Positions 6,363 through 58,842 of a DNA stretch of 64,000 nucleotides are shown here, one piece after another. The stretch's first letter is position 1, and each line of letters opens with the position of its first letter. Made by a program: the position numbers and the translations under genes. The DNA is from Candidatus Tayloriibacteriota bacterium (lineage in GTDB: Bacteria; Patescibacteriota; Minisyncoccia; Phycocordibacterales; PALSA-1337): positions 60 through 64,059 of the forward strand of contig JBAXUB010000004.1 in assembly GCA_037129895.1 (NCBI GenBank), given 5' to 3'. The notes below the pieces were generated by a model. It saw only the letters and a program-made list of their open reading frames with translations. It searched no databases and was not told where the DNA came from.

Positions 6363-6635
6363 ATGTGGTTCGATAGGTGCGAAAGAAGGAATTGGAGAAT
6401 GAACGAAAAACAGCGTAAATACCTGCTTTTGGCATCCGTGATGTTCACTATGGCTATCTGTATGGCGACTGCCATATGGAAGTCGGTTAGTGATAGTGGA
6501 ATACCTCAGGTGAAGTCGGAAGTGGCAAGTGAAGTGAGTACCTCTCAAGAGGCAACCGCTCCGCAGTCAGTTCCCGCTGCTGCCGCCCAAAAGGCGACGG
6601 TAGTGACCGGCACAGTTGCTGGGGGCTTTAAATAG
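6363..6635 (+). CDS. small membrane-anchored protein (paralog of 8108..8380); true start possibly at 6402
   Basis: Motif KQRKYLLLASVMFTMAICMA matches SRKYLLLAVVMFTMAIGMS in the paralog. Conserved upstream leader. Confidence 0.45.
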   Translation: MWFDRCERRNWRMNEKQRKYLLLASVMFTMAICMATAIWKSVSDSGIPQVKSEVASEVSTSQEATAPQSVPAAAAQKATVVTGTVAGGFK

Positions 6636-6719
6636 GTAATTGTAAAAAATAGGTAATTGTAAAGAAGAAAAAAGAAAAGTAGAAAACAAAAAACCAAAAA
6701 AAGAAAGAAAAGGATAGAA

Positions 6720-7820
6720 ATGAAAAAAAATATCGTAAAGTTGGTGTTGGCGACCGTTCTCACGGTCGGGTTCTGTCACATAGTAGCCGCGCAAGTGCTA
6801 CCCATGCTACCCACTAATGTGGATACCATGTCTGACACTACGTCGGACACCACGGCGGTGTCTAAGAACATGCCGACTAGTATGCCGTTCTTGACGTCGA
6901 AGGCTGCGTTGCGCACCTTCGCCATCGAGTCCGCTAGGGGTGCATTCCTGGAGTTGCAGTCTCCCGGAATGGTAGACCCGTCATGGAGTATTGGCACAGC
7001 GTGGCCGTCTCCGCTCAAGGAGGCCGATGTCCTCAACGAGTTCAACCTGATGCAGATAACAATCCCGATGGCGAACATCGAGGATTACGTCCACGCTACG
7101 GCGCGGATCTGCAACGTCGATGGCCGCCCCTTGTTCAGGGGTGAATCATGGGCCAAGCCCGAACTCGTCAAAGGTGGATACGTCCTGCCGCAGATGTGGT
7201 TCTGGTTCTCCATGGAAAGTGTTATTCCGATCAAACTTGATCGGTCTGTGACATCAGTTCGCTTTCGGCACGTAGGTGCTGATGGCCGGACGATCGGAGA
7301 GCCCATCAACCTCAGGGTTCAGAATGGTTACCTCGACTTCCAGAGCGATCTGGCGGGGCAGGGTATCCTGGAACTCTGGGACAACAATGCAAATCAGACT
7401 GAGTACGACCTCCGTAATGGAGGTAAACAGGTACCAGTCCAACGGGTTCTGTACGCCGGTAGCCAGTCGATGATCGACGGTCTGTATAGTTTTACGGATC
7501 CGTCAGAGATCAATTGGCAGGCATGGAGTTGGAATGGTATCGGACAGAATCCGGCATTTGAGGTCACCATGACAACGAAGAATTGGGTAATTCTCAATGT
7601 ATTCTCGAACGAGGGTGCTGTGCCGGTCGGCTTCCAGGTTCGCCTCATGGGCAATACGGACTGGGTCTATTACCCGGTCGTAGCTCCATCGAAGGTAGGC
7701 CAGGTACCGTTAAATCCTGGAGTGTTCTACATCGTTCCGGTGTGGAACGAAACTGAGTTTGCGGAGCCTGAACCTCAGGTACCGCAATCGACGCCCACCA
7801 TGATTGATGGGAAGGGTTAA
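6720..7820 (+). CDS. secreted hypothetical protein (signal peptide)
   Basis: Signal peptide MKKNIVKLVLATVLTVGFCHIVAAQ. Purine-rich leader with AGGA. Similar organisation to 8414..9499. Confidence 0.55.
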   Translation: MKKNIVKLVLATVLTVGFCHIVAAQVLPMLPTNVDTMSDTTSDTTAVSKNMPTSMPFLTSKAALRTFAIESARGAFLELQSPGMVDPSWSIGTAWPSPLKEADVLNEFNLMQITIPMANIEDYVHATARICNVDGRPLFRGESWAKPELVKGGYVLPQMWFWFSMESVIPIKLDRSVTSVRFRHVGADGRTIGEPINLRVQNGYLDFQSDLAGQGILELWDNNANQTEYDLRNGGKQVPVQRVLYAGSQSMIDGLYSFTDPSEINWQAWSWNGIGQNPAFEVTMTTKNWVILNVFSNEGAVPVGFQVRLMGNTDWVYYPVVAPSKVGQVPLNPGVFYIVPVWNETEFAEPEPQVPQSTPTMIDGKG

Positions 7821-7846
7821 TTAGCCCTAGTTCTTTAGTATCACAG

Positions 7847-7883
7847 AGCCGCATTTCCATAGGGAAGTGCGGTCTCTTTTTTT
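7847..7883 (+). terminator. rho-independent terminator
   Basis: Hairpin ccgcatttcc-atag-ggaagtgcgg followed by a T7-8 run. Same sequence recurs at 9542..9579. Confidence 0.6.
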
Positions 7884-7891
7884 AGGTGAAA

Positions 7892-7953
7892 CCTCGACAC
7901 GTTGTAGAGGTCTGACCTCTGCAGTATAACGTCGAGTGTAGAGGTTATCTACA
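7892..7953. repeat. palindromic element cctcgacacgttg-AGAGGTCtGACCTCT-gcag..aacgtcgag plus second half-site
   Basis: Imperfect ~45-bp palindrome centred on AGAGGTC-t-GACCTCT. Copies at 9588..9616 and 10213..10273. Confidence 0.5.
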
Positions 7954-9499: not shown

Positions 9500-9541
9500 T
9501 CTGGATTATTAGTTCTTTGCTCTTTTGATAGAGCTCGCGAG

Positions 9542-9579
9542 AGCCGCATTTCCATAGGGAAGTGCGGTCTCTTTTTTTT
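9542..9579 (+). terminator. rho-independent terminator (second copy)
   Basis: Identical hairpin to 7847..7883 plus a T9 run. Confidence 0.6.
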
Positions 9580-9722
9580 AGGTGAAACCTCGATACGTTG
9601 CAGAGGTCTGACCTCTATATTGGGTAATGTTGACAACGTAAATCTATTTGATAAACTTGCATGCATGAAGAGAGCTTTCGGCCGTGGTTTTCGTACCACA
9701 CTTGGCGGGGAGCTTTTTTCGT

Positions 9723-10212: not shown

Positions 10213-10273
10213 CCTCGACACGTTGCAGAGGTCTGACCTCTGCAGCATAACGTCGAGTGTAGAGGTCTGACCT
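10213..10273. promoter_or_regulatory. palindromic AGAGGTCtGACCTCT element pair in divergent intergenic region upstream of tuf
   Basis: Two copies of agaggtctgacct 22 bp apart, embedded in a larger inverted repeat ctcgac...gtcgag. Confidence 0.4.
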
Positions 10274-10425: not shown

Positions 10426-11613
10426 ATGGCCACAGAATTCAATCGTACAAAGCCGCACGTTAATGTTGGTACAATCGGACACATTGACCACGGGAAGTCT
10501 ACTTTGACAGCCGCTCTTTTGGCAGTTCAAGCCAAGAAAGGTCTAGCAAACGTCAAGGCTTATGCAGACATTACAAAGGGAGGAACAGTTCGTGATGCAA
10601 CAAAGACAGTTACTATTTCTTTGTCTCACGTAGAATATGAGTCTCCTACACGTCACTACGCTCACATCGACTGTCCAGGACACGCTGACTTTATCAAGAA
10701 CATGATTACTGGTGCCGCTCAAATGGACGGTGCTATCCTCGTGGTATCTGCTACAGACGGTGTTATGCCTCAGACACGTGAACACGTTCTATTGGCTTAC
10801 CAAGTTGGTGTTCCAAAGATCGTAGTATTTTTGAACAAGTGTGATCTAGTACCAGAAACAGACCTTATTGACCTTGTTGAGGAAGAGGTGCGTGAACTTC
10901 TCACAAAGAATAAGTTCGATGGAAAGAATATTCCAGTTATCCGTGGTTCAGCTTCGAATGCTCTAGCAGGTGATGCTGAATGGTCAAAGAAGATCGATGA
11001 GCTCATGAATGCTCTCGATACATATATCCCAACACCAGTTCGTGAGATCGACAAGCCATTCCTAATGCCTATCGAAGACATTTTCTCTATCGAAGGACGC
11101 GGAACTGTGGTTACAGGTCGTATCGAGCGCGGTATCATCAAAGTTGGTGAGGAAGTTGAGATCGTTGGCTTCAAAGATACATCAAAGACAGTCATCACAG
11201 GTATCGAGATGTTCAATAAGTCTTTGAAGGAAGGTATGGCAGGAGATAATGCTGGTCTACTATTGCGCGGTACAGGCAAGGATGATGTATCACGCGGTCA
11301 AGTTTTGGCCAAGGCAGGATCAGTCAAACCTCATACAGAATTCGAAGCTGAAGTTTACGTTTTGAAGAAAGAAGAGGGAGGTCGCCACACACCATTCTTC
11401 ACAGGTTACAAGCCTCAGTTCTATATCAGAACAACAGACGTAACAGGTGAGGTAACATTGCCAGAGAAGGTAGAAATGGTTATGCCAGGTGATACAGTTA
11501 CATTCAAAGTCAAACTCGTTGCTCCAGTCGCCCTCGAGGACAAGCAGCGTTTCGCAGTTCGTGAAGGTGGCAAGACAGTAGGTGCAGGAGTTGTAACAAA
11601 GATCGTCGCTTAG
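10426..11613 (+). CDS. tuf: elongation factor Tu
   Basis: [17 protein letters not shown] and NKCD GTPase motifs. 395 aa. Confidence 0.97.
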
Positions 11614-11693: not shown

Positions 11694-12092
11694 ATGTCAA
11701 CAAAAGATACAATCAAAGACGAAGTAATCCCAAAGTCTGCCGTAAAGCGAGCCCCTCGCGTAAAGAAATCCAAAGCTGTAGGTGAGGCACCACATCTCCG
11801 GATTCGAGTGAGAGCTTATGAACACAAGATCTTGGACGCTTCATTGAAACAGATCATGGATACCGCCGCTCGATATGATGCGGAGATACATGGTCCAGTT
11901 CCACTACCGACTGAGATCAAGAAGTACACGGTTAACCGCTCCTCATTCATTGACAAGAATTCTAGAGAACAGTTCGAGATGAGGGTTCACAAGAGACTTA
12001 TCGATATTATCAACCCAAATCCGAAAGTTATCGAAGCGTTGACCAACTTGAGTTTGCCGTCCGGAGTGAATATAGATGTGAAGATGATGTAA
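11694..12092 (+). CDS. rpsJ: 30S ribosomal protein S10
   Basis: LRIRVRAYEH...HKRLIDI core of S10. Start placed at MSTKD (ORF opens at 11667). Confidence 0.85.
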   Translation: MSTKDTIKDEVIPKSAVKRAPRVKKSKAVGEAPHLRIRVRAYEHKILDASLKQIMDTAARYDAEIHGPVPLPTEIKKYTVNRSSFIDKNSREQFEMRVHKRLIDIINPNPKVIEALTNLSLPSGVNIDVKMM

Positions 12093-12109
12093 GCAATTGA
12101 AATAAATGA

Positions 12110-12200
12110 TGAAAAGGGATTGAAGGGGACTTGTGAGCGCGACCGGCGCGAACACGAGGAATTTCCTAGCAAGGAAATATCCGTGCCCCTCACATTCTTT
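12110..12200 (-). repeat. structured repeat family copy C: 65-nt core GGGGCACGG...CAAGTCCCC (reverse orientation) with imperfect inverted flanks
   Basis: Core 12125..12189 is the reverse complement of the cores at 35148..35212 and 39782..39846. Compensatory changes occur in two internal hairpins. Confidence 0.7.
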
Positions 12201-12227
12201 TCCATCTTTTATTTTCACGAAAATACC

Positions 12228-12845
12228 ATGAAATTTATATTAGGAAGAAAACTCAATATGACACAGATCTACGATGCCTCAGGCAAGGCTGTTCCAGTAA
12301 CAGCAGTGCAGGTTCGAGGTAATACTGTAGTTCAAGTCCGTACAAAGGAAGCTGATGGTTATGAAGCTGTACAGATAGGTGAAGGTACACGCAATCCTGG
12401 CCGCATCGCAAAACCACAGAAGGGTCATTTCAAGGACCTAGGTTCTTTCGCATCAGTTTGTGAGTTCCGAATGGATGCACCAACACTCAAAGTTGGCGAC
12501 AAGATGGAACTTTCTCAATTCAAGCTCGGTGATAGTGTCGTAGTCAGTGCCATCTCCAAGGGTAAAGGTTTCCAAGGTGTAGTCAAGAGACATGGTTTCC
12601 ATGGAGGCCCTAGAACTCACGGTCAGAAGCACTCTGAACGCGAGCCAGGTTCTATCGGTGGAGGTCTACGCACACACGTACCAGTAGGTATGCGCATGGC
12701 CGGCAGAATGGGAAGTGATAGGGTTACGGTAAAGAACCTAACAGTTGCCCATATTGACCAAGAGGACTCAGTAATGTATGTTTCTGGAGCAATACCAGGA
12801 CATAGAGGGACATTAGTGGAGATAGTGTCAGAAGGTAAAATGTAG
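12228..12845 (+). CDS. rplC: 50S ribosomal protein L3
   Basis: MKFILGRKLNMTQIYD...VTAVQV N-terminus of L3. Start at the internal Met (12228). Confidence 0.9.
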   Translation: MKFILGRKLNMTQIYDASGKAVPVTAVQVRGNTVVQVRTKEADGYEAVQIGEGTRNPGRIAKPQKGHFKDLGSFASVCEFRMDAPTLKVGDKMELSQFKLGDSVVVSAISKGKGFQGVVKRHGFHGGPRTHGQKHSEREPGSIGGGLRTHVPVGMRMAGRMGSDRVTVKNLTVAHIDQEDSVMYVSGAIPGHRGTLVEIVSEGKM

Positions 12846-12898
12846 AAGGTAAAATCAAAAATTTTCAATTTTAACCTTTCAATTTTAAATTAATTATC

Positions 12899-13574: not shown

Positions 13575-14060
13575 ATGGCTATATTTGGATTCAAAAAAAG
13601 AAAAGACGAGAAACTACAACAGTCAGCTGTTGCGACGAAGAATGTTGCAGCAAAGACTGCAAAGAAGCATGTCGTAGTCCCAAAGAAACAAGAGGGAGGC
13701 AAGAAAGAAGTGGTCAAGGAAGCTGATTCTAAGGTTCTCATAACCAAGCCTTCAAAGGCAGTTGTAGTACCTGTTAGTAGTTTCACTAACGTTTCTGGTG
13801 CTATAATCAGACCTCGAGTAACTGAGAAGTCGGGACTACTCAGTCAAGATGGCCGCTATACATTCGAGGTTCAAAAGGATTCAAACAAGAAATCTATATC
13901 CGACGCAGTCAATGCCCTATACAAAGTCAGACCTATTAAAGTCACAGTTATCAATACACCAACTAAGAATGTATTCGTAAAAGGTCGCAAAGGAACAGTC
14001 GCAGGCATAAGGAAAGCTATTGTGACTCTAAAGAAAGGGGACAAGATCGATTTCGTATAA
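13575..14060 (+). CDS. rplW: 50S ribosomal protein L23 (with K-rich N-terminal extension)
   Basis: C-terminal L23 core. Conserved position between L4 and L2. Confidence 0.8.
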   Translation: MAIFGFKKRKDEKLQQSAVATKNVAAKTAKKHVVVPKKQEGGKKEVVKEADSKVLITKPSKAVVVPVSSFTNVSGAIIRPRVTEKSGLLSQDGRYTFEVQKDSNKKSISDAVNALYKVRPIKVTVINTPTKNVFVKGRKGTVAGIRKAIVTLKKGDKIDFV

Positions 14061-16016: not shown

Positions 16017-16694
16017 ATGTCACACACCGTACATCCATATTCACATAGACTAGGAATCATACGCGACTGGAAGAGCCGATGGTTTTCTTCTGATAAGCTA
16101 TATCGAACATCATTGAAAGGGGACCTCATCATTCGAGAATTCCTACAGAAAGAATTGCGTGCGAACTACGTTGGTGGTTTGGATATAGAGCGCAATCAGA
16201 AAGTTCTACGCGTTATAGTGAAGACTTCTCGCCCAGGTATGCTCATCGGCAAGTCTGGTGATGGAGTCGTCAAACTTCGCGAGAAAATATTGAAGCTATT
16301 ACGCAAAAACAAGGTTGAGCTAAAGAGTGTTGAACTCAAGCTCGACATAGAAGAGATCCGCAGTCCAGAATCGAATGCCGCTATAGCAGCTATGATGGTT
16401 GCAGAGTCACTAGAGAAGCGTCTACCATTCCGACGTGTTATGAAGCAGACAATCGAGAAGGTTATGGCCAATAGAGATGTAAAGGGTATCCGTATCCGTC
16501 TCGGAGGTCGTCTAGGTGGTGCGGAGATCGCACGCTCAGAAGAGCTCAAGAAAGGTCAAGTTCCACTTCAGACATTGCGTGCGGATATCGACTTTGCTCG
16601 TGAGAAGGCACACATGACTTATGGAGACATAGGTATCAAGGTTTGGATATATAAGGGTGAGATATTCAAGAAGGACCAAGTCGTAGCCAAGTAA
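16017..16694 (+). CDS. rpsC: 30S ribosomal protein S3
   Basis: VHPYSHRLGIIRDWKSRWF N-terminus, KH domain. Start at the internal Met. Confidence 0.9.
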   Translation: MSHTVHPYSHRLGIIRDWKSRWFSSDKLYRTSLKGDLIIREFLQKELRANYVGGLDIERNQKVLRVIVKTSRPGMLIGKSGDGVVKLREKILKLLRKNKVELKSVELKLDIEEIRSPESNAAIAAMMVAESLEKRLPFRRVMKQTIEKVMANRDVKGIRIRLGGRLGGAEIARSEELKKGQVPLQTLRADIDFAREKAHMTYGDIGIKVWIYKGEIFKKDQVVAK

Positions 16695-17171: not shown

Positions 17172-17378
17172 ATGAAAATGAAAGAAATCGTAAATAAGAA
17201 TAATTCAGACCTGAATCGTCTCATCACCGAGAAGAGAGAGGCTTTGAGAGCATTCAGATTTGGTTCTGCTGGCTCAAAGACAAAGAACGTCAAGGAAGGC
17301 CGAGGTATCAGGAAGGACATCGCACGCATAATGACGGAGCTAGCAAATGTAAAAGTAAAAATGGAAAATGGAAAATGA
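17172..17378 (+). CDS. rpmC: 50S ribosomal protein L29
   Basis: Small helical protein with LRAFRF motif. Expected position. Confidence 0.8.
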   Translation: MKMKEIVNKNNSDLNRLITEKREALRAFRFGSAGSKTKNVKEGRGIRKDIARIMTELANVKVKMENGK

Positions 17379-17467
17379 TGGACTGGAATTGTATTTTCCA
17401 TTTTAATATTTCAATTTTACATTAACTATAGACAAACACAGATAAATCAAGTAATATCAAACCCCAC

Positions 17468-19388: not shown

Positions 19389-21641
19389 GTGGAAAGAATC
19401 CCAGAAGAACCAAATTTTCATGAAATATCTGAAAAAAGGAAGGAACTCCGAGGGGCTATTTCTGAACTTGGTGATAAGGGACCTATTTTTGAAAAGCACT
19501 ATAAAAAACCACTAGCCGAGGCGGATGAGGAGGCGAGCAAATTCAAAATAGAAGATTTTGGTGGTATTAGTGGTGCCAAGAAAGTTCTCAAAAAACAAAA
19601 ATCCAAATACGAAGAAGATTTTTCTGAAGATAGGGCTCATATTGATTATGAAACTATTTTGAAGGTAGCGCCAGAAGTGGGCGAAGTGCAAAAGATAACA
19701 GAAGAGATTGCCGATCTTAAGGATTTTAGGATGCGTCGAATGTTAGAGCTTTTAAGCCCGCAAACTTCACTTTCAGCTAAAACGAGAAACGAAGCTGTGC
19801 TTAAAACTGTAAAAGAAGAAATCAGAGAAAACGAAGAAAAATTAGAAGAGGCTGACTCGTTGGTTTTACGCCAGGCAGAGCTTATCGAATACAAAGAAAA
19901 TTTGGCCAAGAGTGGTCATATTTGCATCACACCTAGTGTAGAAAAAGATCTGGAGGCGATAGGCGACAGAATGCTTACTGGCAAGCCGATGTTTCTACAT
20001 GGTCCTACAGGTACAGGAAAAACTTCTCTAGCCAGATTCGCTGCTACTCATTTTACTGGCAATGACCCGGAAATGGTTTTTTGTAATCCACAGACTAAGG
20101 AATCAAATGTCTGGGGGAAGACCGGTATTAAGCCAGCGGGAGGCGGAGCGATAGAAACTGTGGAGATTTATGGCCCGCTCGCCAAAGCAATGATAGACGG
20201 CAAGACCGTGATTTTTGATGAATTTACCGCTTTGCCAAAAGAGCAAATGGTTTTCATTAAAGGTGTTTTTAATGCCAAGGTGGGGGATAGAATAAATATT
20301 GTTGGCAATGGCATCGTCGAAATTGCTCCCGGTTTCCAAATGATTTTTACCGCCAACTTGAAATCTGAGAAAAATCCCGAGAGGCAGGATTTACCGCCAG
20401 AAATTGCCCGAGAATTTGAACAAAATAACCTAGAGGTCAAATATACACCCCAAGGTGAAGCTTACGACATTATGCTTTCTAGGCTTCTGAATCGAGACGG
20501 TTCTATCGATATGTCTTTTTATGATTTGAATACCACTCTGCCGAATCTTTGTAAAGTGATGACAGAAATCCAGGAATCGTATACCAACGAGACTGATAAA
20601 GAGGTGGCGAGAAGAGCAGGGGCAATGGATGCTTCCGGTAAGGTTTATTCCTTGAAAAAATTTGTGATGACACAGGGTTCAGTGGAAGCAATTTTGTCTT
20701 CATATTTGATAGAAAAACAGACGGGCAGGAAGGAGAGAAGTTTCGCAGAATTTTTGGATGAAAGATTCATGACAGCTCTGACTTTCAAAGAATACCCCAA
20801 AGAAGATAGAATCTTGGTGGCTAAGATTTTAGCGTCCAAAGGATTTTTGTTGACATTAAATGTCAAAGATTTGGATTTACCGGAAGATATTTTTCAGTTG
20901 AATACCATCAAAGCAATGCGTGGGGAAGATGCCGTAGAAGAACTCCAAAAAGAGTCTGGTGCGGTTAAACATCTAACCTTGAAGGAGGTGGCGGAGCTCG
21001 ACCCGTTCCATAAAAGGCCAGAATTATTGAAAAAACAAGCAGAAGCACTTTTGGGAGATGAAAAGAGCGAAAAAGACCCATTTTTAAAAAGCTTGAATAA
21101 AAAAATGGAGAAAATTTTTGGTAAGGAGAAACCAGTCAATATAATTGATCTATTGATCGCCCACGAACCTTTCCTCAGAGAAACTTTTGGTAAATGGTAC
21201 AGTGGTGATCAAAAGAAGATCGATATTCCTCAAAGACCATCTCTTGTCGACCCGCAATCGTTAGACTTTTCCTCCCTCAAATCCGATATTGACCCTTCAA
21301 AATTCGGTGAATACACCCTAAACCCCGAATGTCTCGGCCTAGACTTCAAAACTGCCAAAATCAAGGTCCTAGATATCCAAAAAGAAATCAAAACTAACAA
21401 ACTAACTGATATAGCCTCCATTGGTAAATACATTATTGACACCTACAGCAAAGACTATATCATCCCAGATATCTCCTTTTGGCAGTGGATGATTGAAAAA
21501 GGTGCCAATGCTCCAACTGAACTTCTGGATGGCAACTATCACTTTTGTTTCGGCTCTATCCTCCGCCGCTCGGGTGGCGATGCTGAGGTGCCTTATGCGA
21601 ATTGGCTTGGCTCTGAGTTCAGTCGGGATGCCCGCAGGTGA
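19389..21641 (+). CDS. AAA+ ATPase (MoxR/AAA_5-like) with C-terminal DGR variable-region domain; DGR target protein 1
   Basis: Walker A GPTGTGKTSLARF and Walker B VIFDEF. N-terminal coiled coil. The last ~130 nt match the TR with adenine-specific mismatches. Confidence 0.7.
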   Translation: MERIPEEPNFHEISEKRKELRGAISELGDKGPIFEKHYKKPLAEADEEASKFKIEDFGGISGAKKVLKKQKSKYEEDFSEDRAHIDYETILKVAPEVGEVQKITEEIADLKDFRMRRMLELLSPQTSLSAKTRNEAVLKTVKEEIRENEEKLEEADSLVLRQAELIEYKENLAKSGHICITPSVEKDLEAIGDRMLTGKPMFLHGPTGTGKTSLARFAATHFTGNDPEMVFCNPQTKESNVWGKTGIKPAGGGAIETVEIYGPLAKAMIDGKTVIFDEFTALPKEQMVFIKGVFNAKVGDRINIVGNGIVEIAPGFQMIFTANLKSEKNPERQDLPPEIAREFEQNNLEVKYTPQGEAYDIMLSRLLNRDGSIDMSFYDLNTTLPNLCKVMTEIQESYTNETDKEVARRAGAMDASGKVYSLKKFVMTQGSVEAILSSYLIEKQTGRKERSFAEFLDERFMTALTFKEYPKEDRILVAKILASKGFLLTLNVKDLDLPEDIFQLNTIKAMRGEDAVEELQKESGAVKHLTLKEVAELDPFHKRPELLKKQAEALLGDEKSEKDPFLKSLNKKMEKIFGKEKPVNIIDLLIAHEPFLRETFGKWYSGDQKKIDIPQRPSLVDPQSLDFSSLKSDIDPSKFGEYTLNPECLGLDFKTAKIKVLDIQKEIKTNKLTDIASIGKYIIDTYSKDYIIPDISFWQWMIEKGANAPTELLDGNYHFCFGSILRRSGGDAEVPYANWLGSEFSRDARR

Positions 21642-21681
21642 GACAATGACTGGCGCTCCAGCTATCGGGTTGCTCTCCTCG
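21549..21681 (+). other. DGR variable region VR1 (extends ~40 nt past the TGA stop at 21639..21641)
   Basis: 16 mismatches against the TR, 15 of them at TR adenines. The 3-prime ~35 nt (initiation of mutagenic homing, IMH-like) are identical to the TR. Confidence 0.8.
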
Positions 21682-21770
21682 AGAGGTAGTGTTTGTATTG
21701 ACCTTGGCCTTTTGACTTTTGTCTTGTCCCCATCGTCTGTTCTCTTTGATTCTTTTGGATTTTGCAATCC

Positions 21771-21800
21771 TCCCGAATGTAATCATTCGGGAGGATTTGT
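21771..21800 (+). other. perfect 13-bp hairpin atcctcccgaatg-taat-cattcgggaggat downstream of VR1
   Basis: Seen directly. Lies exactly at the boundary where the VR1 and VR2 duplicated modules diverge. Confidence 0.5.
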
Positions 21801-22035
21801 CCTATGTTATACTTGTCAGGCATATACAATAATGCGTCCGGGTACGCTTTGACGCGCTATATGCCGAGACCAACAGAACAGAGTCAAGTGCGGTTATCCA
21901 AACTTGAGCGTGTCTGCTGGTGGTGTAATAATTAAACACACTCTGTGAAGCCCACCAAGACATTATGATGTCAAAGACAAAAACCATCCGTGCTTAGGTG
22001 TCATCACGTGCGGGATTGGATATAGATGATGGGCT

Positions 22036-22165
22036 TCGCTAATCCTCCGCAACTCGGATGGCGATGCTAAGGTGCCTTATGCGAATTGGAATGGCACTGA
22101 GTTCAATCGGAATGCCAACAGGTTAGACAATGACTGGAACTCCAACTATCGAGTTGCTCTCCTCG
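22036..22165 (+). other. DGR template repeat (TR)
   Basis: Adenine-rich counterpart of VR1/VR2. AAC/AAT codons lie in register with the target reading frame. Confidence 0.8.
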
Positions 22166-22195
22166 TTACTGTGTTGATTTTCCACCAATTTGGAA

Positions 22196-22567
22196 TTATT
22201 TAAATTGGTGGTTTTGTTTTTTTATTTGGTTTTTCCAGCCGTATAACATTTTGCCGACTTCCTCAACTTTTTGCGACAGGCTAAAAAAAGTATTTTGATC
22301 TAGTCCTTTAAGCTCAAATAAAGCATAGAACATAAACTTAAGCGTATCATTCTTGGTAATGGCGGACATAATCAGTTCTGTGCGAAGGTGAGGTTCGCTA
22401 TAATATGCCGAAGCGATTGATTCTATCATCGTTGCTAGTATCGTCTCGATTCGTATACCCATGGAATAGCGAAGCGATTTGGGAATATGTTTCGTTTTGA
22501 GTTGCCAATCTACATAAAGAGCCAATACTTTTAAGCTTATGCTGGGCAGTTTGCTTGTCGTAGTCAT
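22196..22567 (-). CDS. avd: four-helix-bundle protein, DGR accessory Avd-like (23S rRNA intervening-sequence protein family)
   Basis: ~120-aa helical protein between TR and RT. Family resemblance to TIGR02436. Opposite strand to the RT. Confidence 0.5.
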   Translation of the reverse strand: MTTTSKLPSISLKVLALYVDWQLKTKHIPKSLRYSMGIRIETILATMIESIASAYYSEPHLRTELIMSAITKNDTLKFMFYALFELKGLDQNTFFSLSQKVEEVGKMLYGWKNQIKKQNHQFK

Positions 22568-22575
22568 TTTGCCTA

Positions 22576-23586
22576 TTGTATATGAAAAAAAATAAAAATA
22601 ACATACCCACCTTCGATGAAATTATAACCCTACCCTCGCTGTTTTCAGCATGGCGAGAGTTTGTTTGTGGCAAGAAATCAAAAGGTGATGTGGCGATATT
22701 TGCTATAAATTTATATTCTAATTTGCGAGCTCTAGGCACTGATTTGATGTATGACAGGTATCAGCATGGCGGATACGAATATTTTAAAGTCAAAGATCCG
22801 AAAGAACGCGACATTCATAAGGCGAGTGTGAGAGATCGGGTTGTTCATCATCTTTTATATTCTGCACTCTATGATCATTTTGACCATTATTTTATTTATG
22901 ATTCGTATTCTTGTCGGAATGGCAAAGGCACACACCGTGCAGTGGAGCGGTTTGCTAGATTTGTGTATTCTGTGAGCCAGAGAAATACGCAACCAGTTTG
23001 GATTCTTAAATGTGATATCCGAAAATGCTTTGCTTCAGTTGATCATAGTATCTTACTCGCTATATTAAAACGGCATATCTGTTGTCCGCATTTATCTGGT
23101 ATCGTTAGATCGGTAATTAGAAGCTTTTCAAGTGGCTTGGAAGGAAAAGGAATTCCGTTAGGTAATCTTACTAGCCAGTTATTTATTAATGTTTATCTTC
23201 ACGAATTAGACACATATATTAAAAGAACGCTCGGAGTAAAATATTATATCCGTTATGCTGATGATTTTGTAATTATGGCCAATAGCCGCTTCCTACTGGA
23301 CAATCAGCTCATCCTTATCCGCCATTTTTTGGAAACTAAACTCAAAATGCAAATTCATCCCGATAAAATATTCATTAAAACACTGGCGACAGGATTAGGT
23401 TTCCTCGGCTGGATAAAGTTTTTTGATCACTTGATTCCACGGGCTTCTACTAGACGGCGGATGTTTAAAACAATTAAAAATAGTCCGCATCGGGAAGTAA
23501 CAATACAGTCATATCTCGGAATGCTATCGCACGGGAATACGCACAAACTCCGGGAAATAATCCGGCAAATGCTTGATGGAAAATAG
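22576..23586 (+). CDS. DGR reverse transcriptase
   Basis: Motifs GIPLGNLTSQLFINVYL (IGxxxSQ hallmark of DGR RTs) and RYADDFVI (YxDD). 336 aa. Confidence 0.85.
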   Translation: MYMKKNKNNIPTFDEIITLPSLFSAWREFVCGKKSKGDVAIFAINLYSNLRALGTDLMYDRYQHGGYEYFKVKDPKERDIHKASVRDRVVHHLLYSALYDHFDHYFIYDSYSCRNGKGTHRAVERFARFVYSVSQRNTQPVWILKCDIRKCFASVDHSILLAILKRHICCPHLSGIVRSVIRSFSSGLEGKGIPLGNLTSQLFINVYLHELDTYIKRTLGVKYYIRYADDFVIMANSRFLLDNQLILIRHFLETKLKMQIHPDKIFIKTLATGLGFLGWIKFFDHLIPRASTRRRMFKTIKNSPHREVTIQSYLGMLSHGNTHKLREIIRQMLDGK

Positions 23587-23618
23587 AAAAAGCAGAAGAA
23601 ATTTGGTAGAATGACAAT

Positions 23619-25508
23619 ATGGAACGACTAGATATTATAGAAACAAAAACAGGAAAAAAGCCAGAAGAAATTGCTGAGGATAGCGAGCATGCTGAGGCGG
23701 TGGCATTGGTGGAAAAGCATAGGGATTTTTTTGAGCATTATGCCAAAGGTAAGATAAAAATTGAGCCGGCACCTAAAAGCATACCCACTTTTGCTTTTAA
23801 TTTGGAAAAGAACACCATTTATGTAAATTCAATGTTCTATAAAAAGCTGGGTTTGTCTGAAGAAAAAACAGTCTTTGCAACTCTACATGAGATAGAACAT
23901 TTTATGGAAAAATTGCAGATTCTCTCTGAAGATGGCGGTGAGAAATCTTTTGATAAGTATTTAAAGAGAATCAAAGCTTCTAAAGCCTATTCTCTGATGG
24001 ATAATTGCGTGGCGGATATTCGCGAGAATCGGGCAGTGGTTGGAAAGACCAATAAAGGAATGGGTGAGCTGGAGGAAAAAACCTACAAAGAGGATCTGTT
24101 CGCGGAAACCGATTTTACCAAACAACCTAGGCATATCCAACTTAGTCAGGCACTTTTGAGAGAGGCTAGAGTACCGGATGAAAAGTGCGATGTATCGTCG
24201 GAAGTGAGGCAAGCGCTTGATGAGGTGGGAAAAGTGAAAGGTTTGATGGAAATAATGACGAACCCAGAAACGCCAATGTCCATGCGTATGAAATTGCAAG
24301 ATAAATATATCTGGCCGAAAGTGGAATCACTTTTGGAAAAAGATATGGAGGATAAGAAAAAACAAAAAGAGCAAGAAAAAAAGGAAAAAGAAAAGGGAGA
24401 AGGGAATGATGGTCGAGAATCAGGTGAAGGTAAGGAAGGGCAAGAGGGTGATAAGGACGAAGAAACAGACCCGAATAAAACATTTGCAGACGAGTATGCC
24501 AGGGCGGAGGCGAAATTTCCCGAAGCTGTGCCGATAGAAGAGATAGAAAAAGCCTTGAAAGAATGGAAAGAAGCGCAAAAAGGTAAAGACAATAATGATA
24601 AAGCAGACGAGGACTATGCAAAGAAAATCGGCGTGGAGAAAGAAGATTTGCAGGACTACAGGAAAATAGTAGAAAATTTGGAAAAAACTGTGAATCCGGA
24701 AACGGATGTTGGTATATTAGACGAATTAAAAAATCTTTTTTCTAGAATTATTGCCAAACGAATAAAGGTTGCTCAAGTACCAAAGTATCCAGTAGAAGAA
24801 GGGGATGAATTGACCGATCCGGCGCAACTCGTGGCAGATGTAAAATCTGGCAATCTTCAACCGAAAGTCTGGGAAGATACAGAAATTATAGAAAAAAAGG
24901 GAAACAGATTTGGTGAAGTAGAAATCACCTTGGTTTGTGATCAGTCTGGTTCCATGGCGGGGCAGAAAGCGGAAGAGCAGAGAAAGTCTGCTGTTTTGGT
25001 AATGGAGGTATTGAAAGAGTTTGGGGAGCTGTGTGAAGCAGAAAAGATAAATATAGACAAACCGCTCGAAGTAAAGTCTGAGATTTACGGTTTCGGTGCT
25101 GGTGATGATGAAAAGCCAATGAAAAAGATGTCTGCGGAGCTTGGTGAAGCGGAAAGGATAGAAGTGCTGAAAAGACTTTATGATGTGCCAGGTGGAACGA
25201 CTGATTTCAATTGTTTGGAAGCAATAGATGGCAATTTGACTGAAAATATAAAAAATAAAATCAAGATTGGCGAGCTTAAAAAAATAGTGATTGTCTTTAC
25301 CGATGGTGGAAGTGATAATCCAGGGAGAGTGCAGGGTGTTTTAAAAAGCTTGAGAGATGGTGGAGTGATAGCGATCGGTGTGGGGATTACTAGCGAAGGA
25401 ACACCAGTCTTGTCTACTTATGCGCCGAATGCATTGGTGGTGGAAGATGTAAGTAAATTACCAATCGTTTTGGGTGAACTTTTAAAAGAACATTTGAAAG
25501 ATTTATAG
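23619..25508 (+). CDS. zincin-like (HEIEH) metallopeptidase motif + acidic low-complexity linker + C-terminal von Willebrand factor A domain protein
   Basis: HExxH in TVFATLHEIEHFM. MIDAS motif CDQSGSM and ...VFTDGGSD in the C-terminal region. Confidence 0.6.
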   Translation: MERLDIIETKTGKKPEEIAEDSEHAEAVALVEKHRDFFEHYAKGKIKIEPAPKSIPTFAFNLEKNTIYVNSMFYKKLGLSEEKTVFATLHEIEHFMEKLQILSEDGGEKSFDKYLKRIKASKAYSLMDNCVADIRENRAVVGKTNKGMGELEEKTYKEDLFAETDFTKQPRHIQLSQALLREARVPDEKCDVSSEVRQALDEVGKVKGLMEIMTNPETPMSMRMKLQDKYIWPKVESLLEKDMEDKKKQKEQEKKEKEKGEGNDGRESGEGKEGQEGDKDEETDPNKTFADEYARAEAKFPEAVPIEEIEKALKEWKEAQKGKDNNDKADEDYAKKIGVEKEDLQDYRKIVENLEKTVNPETDVGILDELKNLFSRIIAKRIKVAQVPKYPVEEGDELTDPAQLVADVKSGNLQPKVWEDTEIIEKKGNRFGEVEITLVCDQSGSMAGQKAEEQRKSAVLVMEVLKEFGELCEAEKINIDKPLEVKSEIYGFGAGDDEKPMKKMSAELGEAERIEVLKRLYDVPGGTTDFNCLEAIDGNLTENIKNKIKIGELKKIVIVFTDGGSDNPGRVQGVLKSLRDGGVIAIGVGITSEGTPVLSTYAPNALVVEDVSKLPIVLGELLKEHLKDL

Positions 25509-25528
25509 TTTAAGCCTATAATTGCAAT

Positions 25529-26344
25529 ATGAATTTTGAATCTATCGTAAACATGGCCAAGGGGTCAAAGAAAGAGGAAATAGTCAAAAAACCGGAAAAA
25601 TCCCAAGAGGAACTCCGAGGAGCTTTGGAGTCAAAATTAGAATCTTCGAAACCAGTCTTGCAAGAGGGAATCAAAGAATATGAGCAGGCTTTGAAAGATG
25701 ATACTTTCGAAGACCAAGATGGTGAGGCAGAAGGAGCTGGTGAGAAAAGGAAGGAAGCTATGCAAGCCAAGCTCAGCTCCATGTTTGACCGAGCGGAAAA
25801 AATGAGGAAGCAATTGGACAGTGGTGAAATTCTCGAGCAAATTCCTGAGGCCGATACTATCTTACGGGAACCTTTCCTCAGAGAAACTTTTGGTAAATGG
25901 TACAGTGGTGATCAAAAGAAGATCGATATTCCTCAAAGACCATCTCTTGTCGACCCGCAATCGTTAGACTTTTCCTCCCTCAAATCCGATATTGACCCTT
26001 CAAAATTCGGTGAATACACCCTAAACCCCGAATGTCTCGGCCTAGACTTCAAAACTGCCAAAATCAAGGTCCTAGATATCCAAAAAGAAATCAAAACTAA
26101 CAAACTAACTGATATAGCCTCCATTGGTAAATACATTATTGACACCTACAGCAAAGACTATATCATCCCAGATATCTCCTTTTGGCAGTGGATGATTGAA
26201 AAAGGTGCCAATGCTCCAACTGAACTTCTGGATGGCAACTATCACTTTTGTTTCGGCTCTATCCTCCGCCGCTCGGGTGGCGATGCTGAGGTGCCTTATG
26301 CGAATTGGCTTGGCTCTGAGTTCAGTCGGGATGCCCGCAGGTGA
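25529..26344 (+). CDS. DGR target protein 2 (short; unrelated acidic N-terminus fused to the same VR-bearing C-terminal domain)
   Basis: Last 159 aa identical to target 1. DNA 25868..26469 identical to 21165..21766. Confidence 0.65.
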   Translation: MNFESIVNMAKGSKKEEIVKKPEKSQEELRGALESKLESSKPVLQEGIKEYEQALKDDTFEDQDGEAEGAGEKRKEAMQAKLSSMFDRAEKMRKQLDSGEILEQIPEADTILREPFLRETFGKWYSGDQKKIDIPQRPSLVDPQSLDFSSLKSDIDPSKFGEYTLNPECLGLDFKTAKIKVLDIQKEIKTNKLTDIASIGKYIIDTYSKDYIIPDISFWQWMIEKGANAPTELLDGNYHFCFGSILRRSGGDAEVPYANWLGSEFSRDARR

Positions 26345-26384
26345 GACAATGACTGGCGCTCCAGCTATCGGGTTGCTCTCCTCG
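26252..26384 (+). other. DGR variable region VR2 (identical to VR1)
   Basis: Exact copy of VR1 including the TGA stop. Confidence 0.75.
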
Positions 26385-31174: not shown

Positions 31175-31825
31175 ATGAAGTTATATATTTATATAGATGG
31201 TTTTAATTTATATTACGGATGTCTCAAAGACAGTCCTTTCCTTTGGTTGGATGTAAATAAAATGTCTCAACTACTGTTTCCTAATGATGTAATAGTTAGA
31301 GTTAAATACTTTACTGCTCCAATAAAGGTGAGAAAAGATGATGATCCAGATAAGCCCAGCCGTCAACAGATATACCTTCGAGCACTTCGGACTATTACGA
31401 ATCTGGAGATTATTGAGGGTACTTTTTTGAGTCATAAAGTTTCCATGAAGTTGGCCAACAAAGATGGTTATGCTCTGGTTATTAAAAGTGAGGAAAAGGG
31501 CACTGATGTTAATATTGCGTCACATCTGATCAATGATGCACATAATAGACGCTTCGAAAAAGCAGTAGTTGTATCGAATGATTCCGACCTCGTGACACCA
31601 GTACGTATGGTTACTAAAGATTTGAACTTACTAGTTACGGTAATTAGTCCTTTTGATAAGAATAATATTCAACTGCAGGCTGTGGCTACTAGTGTTAAGC
31701 AGATACGCAAAGGCCTTCTTCGTGTAAGTCAATTTAGTGAAAAGCTAGTCGATTCAACAGGTGAATTTTCAATACCCGAAAGCTGGAAGGATGCAGGTCT
31801 GACGTCAGTATCTGGAGCTAATTAG
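31175..31825 (+). CDS. NYN/LabA-like PIN-fold domain protein
   Basis: MKLYIYIDGFNLYYG N-terminus, SNDSDL acidic motif. Start at the internal Met (ORF opens at 31061). Confidence 0.55.
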   Translation: MKLYIYIDGFNLYYGCLKDSPFLWLDVNKMSQLLFPNDVIVRVKYFTAPIKVRKDDDPDKPSRQQIYLRALRTITNLEIIEGTFLSHKVSMKLANKDGYALVIKSEEKGTDVNIASHLINDAHNRRFEKAVVVSNDSDLVTPVRMVTKDLNLLVTVISPFDKNNIQLQAVATSVKQIRKGLLRVSQFSEKLVDSTGEFSIPESWKDAGLTSVSGAN

Positions 31826-33120: not shown

Positions 33121-33438
33121 ATGGAAATTGTTTATTGGAGTGAAAAAGTGAGAAACTTTAAAAATAATTTTGACCGAATTACCACGTCTCGTGTTATCAG
33201 AACTGTAAATTTACTGGAGGAGCATGGGCCATTGTTAGATATGCCTGATTCAAAAAGTCTCGGTAAAGGACTATTTGAATTACGTATACAAGGTAAGATC
33301 AGGATAAGGCTTCTGTATATTTATCATAATAATAGAGCATATATTATTCATGGTTTTGTAAAGAAAACATGGAAAATACCTATTCAGGATATTCGTTATG
33401 CTAGAAAGATCCAAGACATAATTATTGGAATTGATTAA
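33121..33438 (+). CDS. type II toxin, RelE/ParE superfamily (HigB/Gp49-like)
   Basis: ~100 aa with LFELRI...IRLLY pattern. Immediately upstream of an HTH gene (toxin-first order). Confidence 0.55.
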   Translation: MEIVYWSEKVRNFKNNFDRITTSRVIRTVNLLEEHGPLLDMPDSKSLGKGLFELRIQGKIRIRLLYIYHNNRAYIIHGFVKKTWKIPIQDIRYARKIQDIIIGID

Positions 33439-33467
33439 TATAACATATATGTTATATTGGTAATATT

Positions 33468-33734
33468 ATGAAAACACACAAACAAGATGTCAAAGAGTTC
33501 TTAAAAGACCCTGAAAATATAAGGGCATATGAAAGTCTAGATGTTGAGTTTATGATATATAGCGCCTTAGTAAGGGAACGTATCCAGAAGAAACTTACTC
33601 AAAAGCAGTTAGCTGACAGAATTGGAATTGCACAATCTGCACTCGCGAGATTTGAATCAGGTCGTACGAATCCGACCCTCTCATTTCTTCAGAAAATTAC
33701 TTCTGGTCTGGGATTAAGAATAACAATAGTCTGA
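33468..33734 (+). CDS. XRE-family HTH antitoxin (HigA-like)
   Basis: LTQKQLADRIGIAQSALARFESG helix-turn-helix. Confidence 0.6.
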   Translation: MKTHKQDVKEFLKDPENIRAYESLDVEFMIYSALVRERIQKKLTQKQLADRIGIAQSALARFESGRTNPTLSFLQKITSGLGLRITIV

Positions 33735-33782: not shown

Positions 33783-35102
33783 ATGGCTTCTAGAGAATAT
33801 TTCAATGGTAAGAGGGTGGCCGTTATCGGTCTTGGCCCCTTTGGTGAAATGGTTGAAGATGTAAAGTATCTCATCAAGGCTGGCGCCTTGGTCGCGATAT
33901 ACGATCTCCGTAGTGAGGCGAGACTGAAGAGTTACCTGGTATTCTTGCGTTCTATAGGGTTAGCGAACTATGTTTGTGGATCTATTCCAGTAGATGATTT
34001 ACTCGATATGGATATCGTCATCTTATCTCATGAATATCCGAGGAATTCATCTTTCTTGGCTGGTGTAAAATCAAAAAAAATTCCGATCGAATATCCGGAG
34101 ACTATCTTTTTCAGGCAAGCTCCACCGGTCAATGTTGTTGGAGTTATGGGAATGTGTGGTAAATCTACAGTAGTCTCGATGTTGGCTCCTATGCTGGAAC
34201 ATGCTTGTGCTCTATTCGGTGATCAAAAGCTGTTCTGTATCGACCCAGAGTCTGGTGAAGGAGTGATATCTCATCTAAAGAAGATAAAAAGTGGTGACAT
34301 CGTACTGATGCGAGTGACTGAGGATATGGCTGTTGAACTGCATGCTATGCGTATGAGTCCGCATGTGGCGATATTCACAACTCTGCCAAACAAGGGAACG
34401 TACTCTGATGCGGCTTTCGAACTACTCGAATATCAGACGTATAACAATTTTATCGTTAGTAATGATGCTGTCATAGATCTCATCCATGCTCTCAAGATAC
34501 AGCCAAAAGCCAAAATGCTCCGAACAAAGTCCAATGTCGTTCCTGAATCATGGGGATTTGAAGGTAGGGGCTCGCATGATAAGGACAATGCGTCTCTAGC
34601 TCTGCAAGCAGCTCGTTTGTTCAAAGTTGAAGATGATGATGCACAGAGGTTCCTATCCTTATGGAAACCTCTAAAAGGTCGCATCGAATTTGTAAAGAAA
34701 GTAAAGAATGTGGAGTTCTATAATGATACAGCTTCTGTTGTGTCGTGTTCCACGGAGATCGCTCTGGAATCGTTATCAAAAAACAGAAATATTGTATTGG
34801 TCTTGGGTGGTGCTGAAAGCGCATGTGATTATACGCATCTATTTTCAATATTGCCACAGTTTGTCCATTCAATAATCCTCGTTCCTGGTAGTGGAACGAT
34901 GAAAGAGAGGGCATACTTGCGTGATTTGAAAGACGTCAATATCGTCTCTGCACCTTCTATCGAAGAAGCGGCGACTCTAGCTTTGGAAAATTCAAAGAAA
35001 GGTGACAAGGTCCTCTTTAGTCCAGGTTTTGAAGCCTATGGTATCGATGGGTCCAGAAGAGAGAGAGGTGAGAGATTCGTCAAGGCTGTCCGAGGGTTGT
35101 AG
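33783..35102 (+). CDS. murD: UDP-N-acetylmuramoylalanine--D-glutamate ligase
   Basis: N-terminal KRVAVIGLGPFG Rossmann, central Mur ligase domain, C-terminal LFSPGFEAYG...ERGERF. Confidence 0.75.
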   Translation: MASREYFNGKRVAVIGLGPFGEMVEDVKYLIKAGALVAIYDLRSEARLKSYLVFLRSIGLANYVCGSIPVDDLLDMDIVILSHEYPRNSSFLAGVKSKKIPIEYPETIFFRQAPPVNVVGVMGMCGKSTVVSMLAPMLEHACALFGDQKLFCIDPESGEGVISHLKKIKSGDIVLMRVTEDMAVELHAMRMSPHVAIFTTLPNKGTYSDAAFELLEYQTYNNFIVSNDAVIDLIHALKIQPKAKMLRTKSNVVPESWGFEGRGSHDKDNASLALQAARLFKVEDDDAQRFLSLWKPLKGRIEFVKKVKNVEFYNDTASVVSCSTEIALESLSKNRNIVLVLGGAESACDYTHLFSILPQFVHSIILVPGSGTMKERAYLRDLKDVNIVSAPSIEEAATLALENSKKGDKVLFSPGFEAYGIDGSRRERGERFVKAVRGL

Positions 35103-35121: not shown

Positions 35122-35242
35122 ACTGTACGTGCTGGAAATGGAATATAGGGGCACGGATATTTTTCTGCTGAAAAATTCCTCGTGCTCGCGCCAGTCGCGC
35201 TCGCAAGTCCCCTATATTCCATTTTCAGCACGTACAGTTCTC
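35122..35242 (+). repeat. structured repeat family copy A: 65-nt core embedded in a 30-bp near-perfect inverted repeat
   Basis: Arms actgtacgtgctggaaatggaatatagggg / cccctatattccattttcagcacgtacagt. Core identical (1 nt) to copy B. Confidence 0.75.
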
Positions 35243-39753: not shown

Positions 39754-39873
39754 TTAAGTAGCCCTGCATTCTTCAAATGGCGGGGCACGGATATTTTTCT
39801 GCTGAAAAATTCCTCGTGCTTGCGCCAGTCGCGCTCGCAAGTCCCCGCCATTTGAAGAATGCAGGGCTACTTA
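39754..39873 (+). repeat. structured repeat family copy B: 65-nt core within a perfect 32-bp inverted repeat
   Basis: Arms ttaagtagccctgcattcttcaaatggcgggg and the exact reverse complement. Confidence 0.75.
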
Positions 39874-48112: not shown

Positions 48113-48137
48113 ATTCTAGGGCTTATCGAGGTGTAAA

Positions 48138-49235: not shown

Positions 49236-49245
49236 GATTGGTAAG

Positions 49246-53027: not shown

Positions 53028-53031
53028 GTTA

Positions 53032-53766: not shown

Positions 53767-53778
53767 TGGTAAAGTTTA

Positions 53779-55286: not shown

Positions 55287-55307
55287 AATGTTAAAAAGCT
55301 AATACCT

Positions 55308-57270: not shown

Positions 57271-57280
57271 ATCAGGTTTA

Positions 57281-58836: not shown

Positions 58837-58842
58837 ACCAAA

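Follow-up and report, generated by a model that had tools for sequence, protein, structure and literature searches.

A 64,000-nt stretch of a Candidatus Tayloriibacteriota genome (contig JBAXUB010000004.1, positions 60 to 64,059; hereafter the window) carries three copies of a conserved core of about 60 bases, each enclosed between long inverted arms that are peculiar to their locus. Filled and empty alleles of related copies show that insertion adds the core together with DNA copied in inverted form from one target flank, the arm on the other side being native. With a probability of about 0.6, this ~60-base family is small non-coding mobile DNA of Patescibacteria, that is, of bacteria belonging to the candidate phyla radiation (CPR), in which the locus-specific stem comes from an inverted copy of the target. 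The inverted target copy measures about 6-20 nt, and arms of up to about 40 nt occur in intergenic copies. The core can bring along between a few and about 19 bp of the donor stem, and it can flip within its arms. Both the arms and the halves of the small core hairpins stay complementary by paired changes, either through selection or through hairpin-templated correction. The parts of the three copies, in window coordinates, are as follows.

12100..12124, no strand: copy 1 arm on the rpsJ side (GAAATAAATGATGAAAAGGGATTGA...), degenerate partner of 12190-12214
12125..12189, minus strand: copy 1 core, reading GGGGCACGG...CAAGTCCCC on that strand, covariance model score 93.6 bits
12190..12214, no strand: copy 1 arm on the rplC side, pairing with 12100-12124
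35122..35147, no strand: copy 2 left arm (ACTGTACGTGCTGGAAATGGAATATA), paired over 25/26 bp with 35213-35238, with one G.T
35148..35212, plus strand: copy 2 core, covariance model score 98.5 bits
Parts of the copy 2 core: closing helix P1, 35148-35151 with 35209-35212; hairpin 1, 35155-35179; hairpin 2, 35183-35205
35213..35238, no strand: copy 2 right arm, partner of 35122-35147
39754..39781, no strand: copy 3 left arm (TTAAGTAGCCCTGCATTCTTCAAATGGC), 28/28 with the right arm, 100% complementary
39782..39846, plus strand: copy 3 core, covariance model score 96.8 bits
39847..39874, no strand: copy 3 right arm, partner of 39754-39781

Copy 1 lies between rpsJ (11694-12092) and rplC (about 12228/12258-12845), copy 2 between the convergent murD (33783-35102, plus strand) and a PALP enzyme gene (35255-36118, minus strand), and copy 3 between mraY (38562-39689, minus strand) and a gene for a 258-aa protein (39909-40685, minus strand). 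Each half of the core has three exact matches in the window against 0.00 expected in dinucleotide-preserving shuffles, which bears out the three positions and strands given in a preliminary description of this DNA. That description also called the flanking repeats perfect or near-perfect, which holds for copies 2 and 3 and fails for copy 1, where the arms show 20 matches, 4 mismatches and 2 gaps. The arms of copy 3 pair over 28 bp, or 32 when GGGG/CCCC is counted in, and those of copies 2 and 3 exceed every other inverted repeat of the window in length. No palindrome longer than 20 bp was found without a core in the 64-kb window, whose ordinary terminator-like hairpins have arms of only 14-18 bp. 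Folded as DNA, the copy 1 cassette (12094-12219) reaches -25.9 kcal/mol (z -5.0), and copies 2 and 3 with their flanks reach -43.5 kcal/mol (z -12.4) and -52.2 kcal/mol (z -14.0), respectively.

The core alone folds as a three-way junction, in which a closing helix GGGG/CCCC carries an A+T-rich hairpin with a TGCT loop and a G+C-rich hairpin with a CAGTC loop, leaving just about 6 bases unpaired. As a single strand, either strand of the core folds into two short hairpins on the short closing helix, which together with the arms gives a T-shaped hairpin. Copies 1 and 2 differ at nine positions, eight of which form four compensatory pairs, with one further unpaired. Three of the paired changes are in hairpin 1 (TTC/GAA versus CCT/AGG, the latter in copy 1), and one is in hairpin 2 (C..G versus T..A, copy 1 having the TGT/ACA variant). 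In 36 distinct copies, standard pairing is found in 98.0% of cells; two-sided changes occur at 17 of the 22 pairs (77 cells) and one-sided, wobble changes in 7 cells. This level of covariation was reached by none of 500 shuffles, and no slid register comes near it; the compensatory changes first seen in two stems are real. Wobble pairs make up 12 of 785 core cells, and those of the G.U type are divided between the strands as 7 versus 5. Such a near-absence of wobble pairs is due either to selection on a DNA hairpin or to hairpin-templated correction in replication. The core was indeed conserved, as the preliminary description had it, although not over 65 nt: the conserved unit is about 57-61 nt (GGCACGGA...CAAGTCC), and the outer 2 bp of the 65 nt vary and covary (AGGG/CCCT, AAGG/CCTT, ATGG/CCAT, CGGG/CCCG) as part of the arms. 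Its G+C content is 55-60%, versus about 40% for the genome.

An Rfam scan, proposed in the preliminary description, matched no family to the core: the whole window at the gathering threshold gave just two tRNAs, and copy 2 at E-values up to 10 gave miRNA-precursor noise alone (12-19 bits). A ribozyme or a tRNA-like fold is rejected, as no Rfam ribozyme or tRNA model matches and the junction has only those few unpaired bases. The claim of a new structured repeat family with covarying hairpins stands. The window itself derives from a Taylorbacteria-like member of the Paceibacteria.

The spread of the family was followed with a pattern anchored on the junction bases, with the hairpins left free, and with a looser version of it for metagenomes. 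In species-representative genomes the anchored pattern turned up 8 loci, from records that carry the labels Candidatus Saccharibacteria (2), Taylorbacteria, Paceibacterota or unclassified bacterium; the looser one gave 29 metagenome loci, of which one is a chance match rich in G+C and another is truncated where its contig ends. A covariance model of the core, built from 22 copies, gave 40 matches in about 0.4 Mb of retrieved DNA, among them diverged copies missed by the patterns. In this search, also suggested in the preliminary description, the further copies vary compensatorily and not randomly. About 40 copies are thus known in unrelated contexts with near-identical junction sequences. All lie within contigs of chromosomal DNA (up to 148 kb). 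Two core patterns gave 0 matches in viral contigs, and none was found for the core in the phage and plasmid collections. Several short-read contigs end within core hairpin 1, at 75 nt past murD in L039 and at 101 nt in L041 and L042; the cassettes break assemblies, and copy numbers in metagenome-assembled genomes are hence probably underestimated.

The arms have a median of 24.5 matched bp in the 38 copies that have enough flank, with 49 the longest and none in one decayed in-gene copy. They are unrelated among non-orthologous loci; the earlier observation that arm sequence differs at each locus, which set the element apart from a classical miniature inverted-repeat transposable element (MITE), holds for the family. 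The bases beside the core show no conserved target motif (TTTTT, GTTTA, CCTGC, TTCGC, ACTCA and others), and across the 38 copies the bases that come after the arms are not rich in T. Where intergenic arms overlap genes, they do so at gene 3' ends in 11 of 11 cases, by 5-18 nt; in one of them the arm extends over C-terminal residues that are conserved in GroES. In a subfamily, 8 copies from differing gene contexts have in common an inner stem (ATAGCTCTTCTCAG / CTGATAAGACTAT) with an identical bulge and mismatch. This stem reaches nested lengths (ATAG, AAATAG, TGAAATAG, TTTGAAATAG) of 13-19 bp, beyond which each locus again has arms of its own. The mismatches found in arms show an asymmetry: on the GGCACGG strand, A.C outnumbers G.T by 36 to 10 (p = 1.6e-4), an excess that corresponds to would-be G.U on the GGACTTG strand and persists without the shared subfamily position (29 versus 9, p = 1.7e-3). 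It is equal whichever direction the host genes run. Two other origins of the arms are rejected. Copying from elsewhere in the genome is not indicated, since arm 13-mers recur in the retrieved DNA, besides orthologues and the subfamily stem, solely as isolated, chance-like single-word matches. Nor do the arms appear to be acquired anti-phage 'spacers', as 22-23-mers of two perfect arms have 0 matches in viral contigs.

How the arms arise is seen in copies that lie within genes. TGT (queuine tRNA-ribosyltransferase) proteins of related Paceibacteria range from 391 to 501 residues, and their alignment shows two variable loops. The first loop has the window's core family (family 1) in L011 and P0242; the second has it in the opposite orientation (GTDISLLGNSSCSRQSRSQVP) in P0248 and P0253. 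At site 1, L011 is filled and L056 and L057 are empty. The insert measures exactly 24 codons (72 nt) and is made up of 16 nt that are the complement of CCTTTGAACCCTGCGAG, the native right flank, and then of the core. The right arm of L011, cct ttg aac cct gcg agt tct ggt (PLNPASSG), follows ...gaa and the insert, and its counterpart in the empty allele is ccc ctg aat ccc aaa act tca ggt (PLNPKTSG). Since PLNPxxSG is also present in the empty allele, the right arm of L011 is native, whereas the left arm (CTTGCAGGTGAAAAGG) lies within the 72 inserted bases and is the inverted complement of the right arm. For site 2, the filled allele is that of L060 and the empty one that of L058, with an insert of 30 codons; the outermost GGAGTT with the native CTT pairs with native AACTCC(AAG) over 6-9 nt, and the inner 10-11 bp of both arms are inside the insert. 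A hairpin of a different family at site 1 behaves likewise in the comparison of L062 with L058, where inserted GCATCCACTTGGAGGAG pairs with native CTCTCCCAAAAAGGATGC, which is kept in the empty allele. There is no palindrome at the empty TGT sites 1 and 2, and no direct repeat at the junctions of L011/L056 and L060/L058; an inverted copy of one flank is found instead.

The three TGT inserts are independent and free of stop codons, and the length of each is a multiple of 3. The TGT gene of L011 holds one full and one half copy, and the ABC-F ATPase gene of L012 holds a copy in the first ABC domain, for which the solved homologues are too distant to place the insertion junctions. The full copies of both genes have the same orientation and frame and encode the peptide GDLRxRRxEHEEFxSRxISVP. 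A profile of the core peptide gave 14 hits among 1.84 billion protein clusters, including a ComF-like protein (P0363) with an in-frame copy. Another protein, P0364 (145 aa), starts with the core peptide and continues as what is presumably a spurious open reading frame (ORF) of a 23S rRNA gene; if that ORF reading holds, this copy may lie beside or within an rRNA gene. Apparent in-gene copies in L001 and L027 were discarded as artefacts of N-terminal extension, the element being situated in the 5' untranslated region (UTR). An intron reading of the in-gene copies is likewise rejected, as the TGT inserts are in frame and stop-free and one copy has decayed into ordinary coding sequence. Apart from the core family, the TGT loops, which are taken to be surface loops, have repeatedly acquired palindromic inserts of several families, to which the range of 391-501 residues is due, e.g., those that give the recurrent peptide LGGxIPPDSxxGFEGG, and the TGT gene of L062 (637-770 and 985-1130) includes a G+C-rich hairpin of about 100 nt.

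The window's own copies have no precise empty site: the relative L040 (murD product 92% identical) has both copies, and L043 (murD product 81% identical) is too diverged at one of these sites and has another family at the second. In L040 the orthologous cassette at the murD site has the core inverted (11366-11430) in the same arms. The G.T mismatch of the arm keeps its side there, and the flip is therefore internal to the cassette. The orthologous copy at the mraY site (16021-16085) shows compensatory changes, hairpin 2 having gone from GCGC/GCGC to GAGC/GCTC. The arms, too, have changed in pairs between the window and L040, with 4 compensatory double substitutions at murD and 2 at mraY (including G:C->T:A and T:A->A:T), besides 3 uncompensated substitutions and one pair in which both bases were replaced, with a T.G wobble as the outcome. 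In L043 the mraY site is empty, with a spacer of 22 nt versus 219 nt and no palindrome, and the murD site holds another cassette of the same architecture, with 22-bp perfect arms and two hairpins. This second family is marked by the junction strings TCGGCTTC and TGCAGATG. It also occupies the rpsJ-rplC site, with wholly different arms, in genomes whose flanking DNA there is 94-95% identical to that of the window, while genomes with 94% and 87% identical L3 have a third family at that site, with the pattern GAGATACCC..GCAGA-hairpin-TCGAGGA-hairpin-GTGTATYGA. The cassettes of other families are located as follows.

L047, 1030-1165: other-family cassette
L043, 11328-11462: other-family cassette
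L051, 1030-1160: other-family cassette
L054, 1054-1186: other-family cassette

The family-1 model scores families 2 and 3 weakly (13-16 bits), which indicates that the T-shaped cassettes form a class made up of at least three families; Rfam at E-values up to 1 gave no match for the cassettes of L047, L051 and L054. At two of the three window sites, relatives thus bear another family of the same architecture.

For the insertion itself, the following course is proposed as the simplest and the most likely. The intermediate would be a folded single-stranded hairpin, either DNA or the complementary DNA (cDNA) of a processed hairpin RNA, that might be attached to a 3' end where the target is broken or nicked. 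Because the 3' end of the hairpin is base-paired at the foot of the stem, it could in this proposal prime synthesis on the joined strand, so that the recessed end would be extended by fold-back synthesis along the target. The outcome would be target, core and inverted target in this order, ahead of a second joint. Copies would persist where the harm is small, namely just past stop codons, between genes and, rarely, in surface loops of proteins as in-frame insertions, and effects on the transcript (e.g., a stable 3' hairpin) would be secondary.

Several points weigh against mobile DNA with a target-made stem. No enzyme, autonomous partner or intermediate was found in the window ORFs and the ~0.4 Mb of DNA. 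Just three filled/empty comparisons are at hand, at 70-80% protein identity, which puts an uncertainty of 2-4 nt on each insert junction. Moreover, the GG/CC found where the core ends can be assigned neither to the element nor to the target because the empty site starts with CCCC. The side of the native arm relative to core polarity differs between TGT sites 1 and 2, which implies either that insertion is symmetric or that polarity has been erased by flips. At the rpsJ-rplC site the whole cassette, including both arms, differs between genomes with 95% identical flanks, and such replacement needs allele exchange or two independent insertions. Finally, the A.C/G.T bias of the arms points to a strand asymmetry that is outside the explanation given by the model.

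Among other explanations, the one that survives best, unlikely as it is, takes the hairpins as beneficial to the host, acting as bidirectional transcription stops or as stabilisers of mRNA 3' ends in the manner of repetitive extragenic palindromes (REPs), with mobility as the mere route of arrival. The hairpins do abut stop codons, their arms are actively kept paired, and two of the three window sites are occupied in relatives by a different family with this architecture, as if a hairpin were wanted there. Nevertheless, no T-run follows the arms, the orthologous mraY site with its 22-nt spacer is plainly empty, and copies are found in coding regions and in 5' UTRs (L001, L027); moreover, hairpin-templated correction can keep the pairing without any gain to the host. 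In particular, an intrinsic terminator is rejected, since the T-run is absent in the 38 copies and terminator calling picked out none of the three window copies.

More doubtful is a structured non-coding or cis-regulatory RNA (a processing signal, a riboswitch-like element or a protein-binding 3' UTR module) whose stem would be a substrate of an RNase III-type enzyme. It would account for the strong covariation of the hairpins, for the position of most copies in transcribed intergenic regions near gene 3' ends and for arms of about 25-30 bp, which suit a double-strand RNase, and the excess of would-be G.U on the GGACUUG strand (36 versus 10) could mean that the strand matters. On the other hand, that excess is indifferent to the direction of the host gene, and the few wobble pairs of the core (12/785 cells) show no strand preference. 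Between co-directional genes, the core is sense in 9 cases and antisense in 6 (p = 0.61), and it is flipped between relatives. Copies lie in frame in coding sequences, one of them half-decayed, and Rfam offers no match. The cores are also near-identical across deep lineages, yet are swapped for unrelated families at one site.

A non-autonomous derivative of a known transposon is less probable again, whether a MITE, a REP or REPIN mobilised by a REP-associated tyrosine transposase (RAYT), or a palindrome of the insertion sequence (IS) type IS200/IS605 moved by an HUH enzyme. The element is small, non-coding and multi-copy, its hairpins covary like ends recognised by structure, and direct target duplication is missing, as in IS200/IS605. 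It has, however, neither shared terminal repeats nor a conserved target tetranucleotide beside the core, and inverted target duplication is not known from any of these families. No transposase, RAYT, TnpA or Y1/HUH enzyme was found among the 40 window ORFs scanned or looked up against Pfam, and the covariance model found no half-cores flanking a gene in the ~0.4 Mb.

The least probable explanation is a mini mobile element with a preference for the loops of long hairpins or palindromes, for instance terminators, that were there beforehand, the arms being older than the insertion: IS elements that target REP loops exist, and the arms of one subfamily resemble A-tract/stem/T-tract terminators (e.g., AAAAAGCAT...ATGCTTTTT), but the empty alleles have no palindrome and three filled/empty pairs contradict it, one TGT arm belongs to the inserted DNA, and the window has no core-less palindrome above 20 bp, its native terminators having arms of 14-18 bp.

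The functional proposals of the preliminary description fare accordingly. Its placing of a module in the loop of pre-existing hairpins is contradicted by the empty alleles without palindrome and by the lack of any long core-less palindrome in the window; the uninterrupted palindrome that it suggested looking for at empty sites was sought at the mraY site of L043 and at the TGT sites, and none was found. The uniform orientation relative to the mRNA rested on two cases and is lost in the count of 9 versus 6 and in the inverted core of L040. A terminator or insulator as the primary nature is not sustained, with no T-run after the arms, both orientations and some copies translated in frame, and the last two facts also speak against a cis-regulatory RNA as the primary nature. 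The cassettes may still have a secondary effect on mRNA ends.

There are several known systems to which the cassettes can be likened, the nearest being the palindromic elements of Rickettsia, REPs or REPINs, and MITEs. Rickettsia palindromic elements (RPE) are inserted in frame within unrelated protein genes and are translated (PMC10969869). Both they and the present elements are short palindromic repeats of reduced genomes that occur between genes and as in-frame translated inserts (here in TGT, ABC-F and ComF-like proteins). As far as is known, the copies of an RPE share their whole sequence, stems included. In contrast, only the cap is common here and the stem is target-made; RPE belong to another phylum and serve as an analogue. 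REPs and REPINs, too, are extragenic hairpin repeats near gene 3' ends, conserved in structure and present in many copies in either orientation. In REPs the stem has a common sequence, a 5' tetranucleotide is shared as well, and there is a link to a RAYT gene, whereas the present stems are locus-specific, with no flanking motif and no RAYT in the window ORFs scanned. MITEs resemble the cassettes in being small, non-autonomous, multi-copy and hairpin-forming, but they have family-wide terminal inverted repeats and direct duplications, while the repeats here are copy-specific and the duplication is inverted. The IS200/IS605 elements likewise use folded single-strand hairpins rather than terminal repeats and make no direct target duplication; they insert next to a fixed short target and without duplication of a flank, neither of which holds here.

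The T shape, a long stem capped by two small palindromes, and the flip/flop forms recall the inverted terminal repeats (ITRs) of parvoviruses such as adeno-associated virus (AAV). In AAV, the 3' end of the hairpin primes DNA synthesis, which is the model for the mechanism proposed above. An ITR ends a linear viral genome that has a Rep nickase, whereas the cassettes are internal to chromosomes, and the likeness is one of analogy and not of homology. Template switching and fold-back priming at quasipalindromes could give both the paired arm changes and a self-templated inverted duplication; these are, however, general replication errors and leave unexplained a conserved 60-nt core at about 40 unrelated sites. 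In the mitochondria of sponges and fungi, small mobile hairpins invade intergenic regions and genes of compact genomes, as one account describes (PMC2800124). Their setting is organellar. Integron attC sites are rejected, as these require conserved R''/R' outer boxes, whereas the element has a conserved centre, variable ends and housekeeping neighbours.

We are aware of no bacterial mobile element on record with an insertion signature of this sort, and to our knowledge the well-studied classes of transposable elements make a direct target duplication or none. A search of one literature collection found no paper that ties Patescibacteria or Parcubacteria to a MITE or REP and no account of inverted target duplication in bacteria. 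Tentatively, then, the cassettes might represent an undescribed mode of transposition, with fold-back priming by a T-hairpin, inverted target duplication and several unrelated-looking families that compete for sites and remodel CPR proteins. If true, an element that makes its own inverted repeats from its target would imply a new insertion chemistry and an unlooked-for enzyme. It would also explain several features of CPR genomes, such as long unique palindromes, assembly breaks, length variation of TGT and extra peptide segments. The covariance model of the cap provides a marker of horizontal exchange among uncultivated ultra-small bacteria, and the flip/flop state is a ready test of recombination within palindromes in organisms that cannot be cultured.

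The window has other repeats and variable regions. A diversity-generating retroelement (DGR) lies at 19731-26384, with an Avd-like gene (22196-22567, minus strand) and a reverse transcriptase gene (22582-23586, plus strand). Its template repeat (TR) is at 22042-22165, and two identical variable repeats (VRs; 21558-21681 and 26261-26384) are situated at the 3' ends of the ORFs 19731-21641 and 25529-26344. Of the differences between template and variable repeats, 15/16 are at template adenines, and a 300-nt perfect direct repeat (21165-21464 = 25868-26167) precedes both variable repeats. A link between this reverse transcriptase and the core is rejected: the enzyme belongs to a DGR that has an Avd, a TR and two VRs for itself, and the variation of the core is not adenine-specific.

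A second structured repeat of about 55 nt, a nested hairpin (CCTCGACACGTTGYAGAGGTCTGACCTCTGCAGYATAACGTCGAGTGTAGAGGT), is found at 7892-7945, 9588-9616 (partial) and 10213-10266. Two of its copies are directly 3' of an identical intrinsic terminator, AGAGCCGCATTTCCATAGGGAAGTGCGGTCTCTTTTTTT (7845-7883 and 9540-9578), and the repeat is also present in L063 at about 6556-6772; Rfam gave no match to it at the gathering score. The ribosomal protein operon contains A+T-rich imperfect palindromes of AAAATGGAAAA-like units at 17341-17428 and 12836-12887, and in L063 at 13742-13844. The spacer between rplV and rpsC, together with the tail of rplV, is replaced between the window and a 91-95% identical relative. 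The interval between the pyruvate kinase gene and radC holds an NYN-domain gene in the window (31175-31825) and a DNA methylase with an HpaII-type restriction enzyme in L040 (5883-7881). A Gp49/HTH toxin-antitoxin-like pair is encoded at 33121-33734 and a TrwB/VirD4/HerA-like ATPase at 45445-47283. The region 47336-63382 is a 16-kb, mostly minus-strand cluster of genes for glycosyltransferases, FkbM-type methyltransferases and a polysaccharide flippase, with a G+C content of 33-38%.

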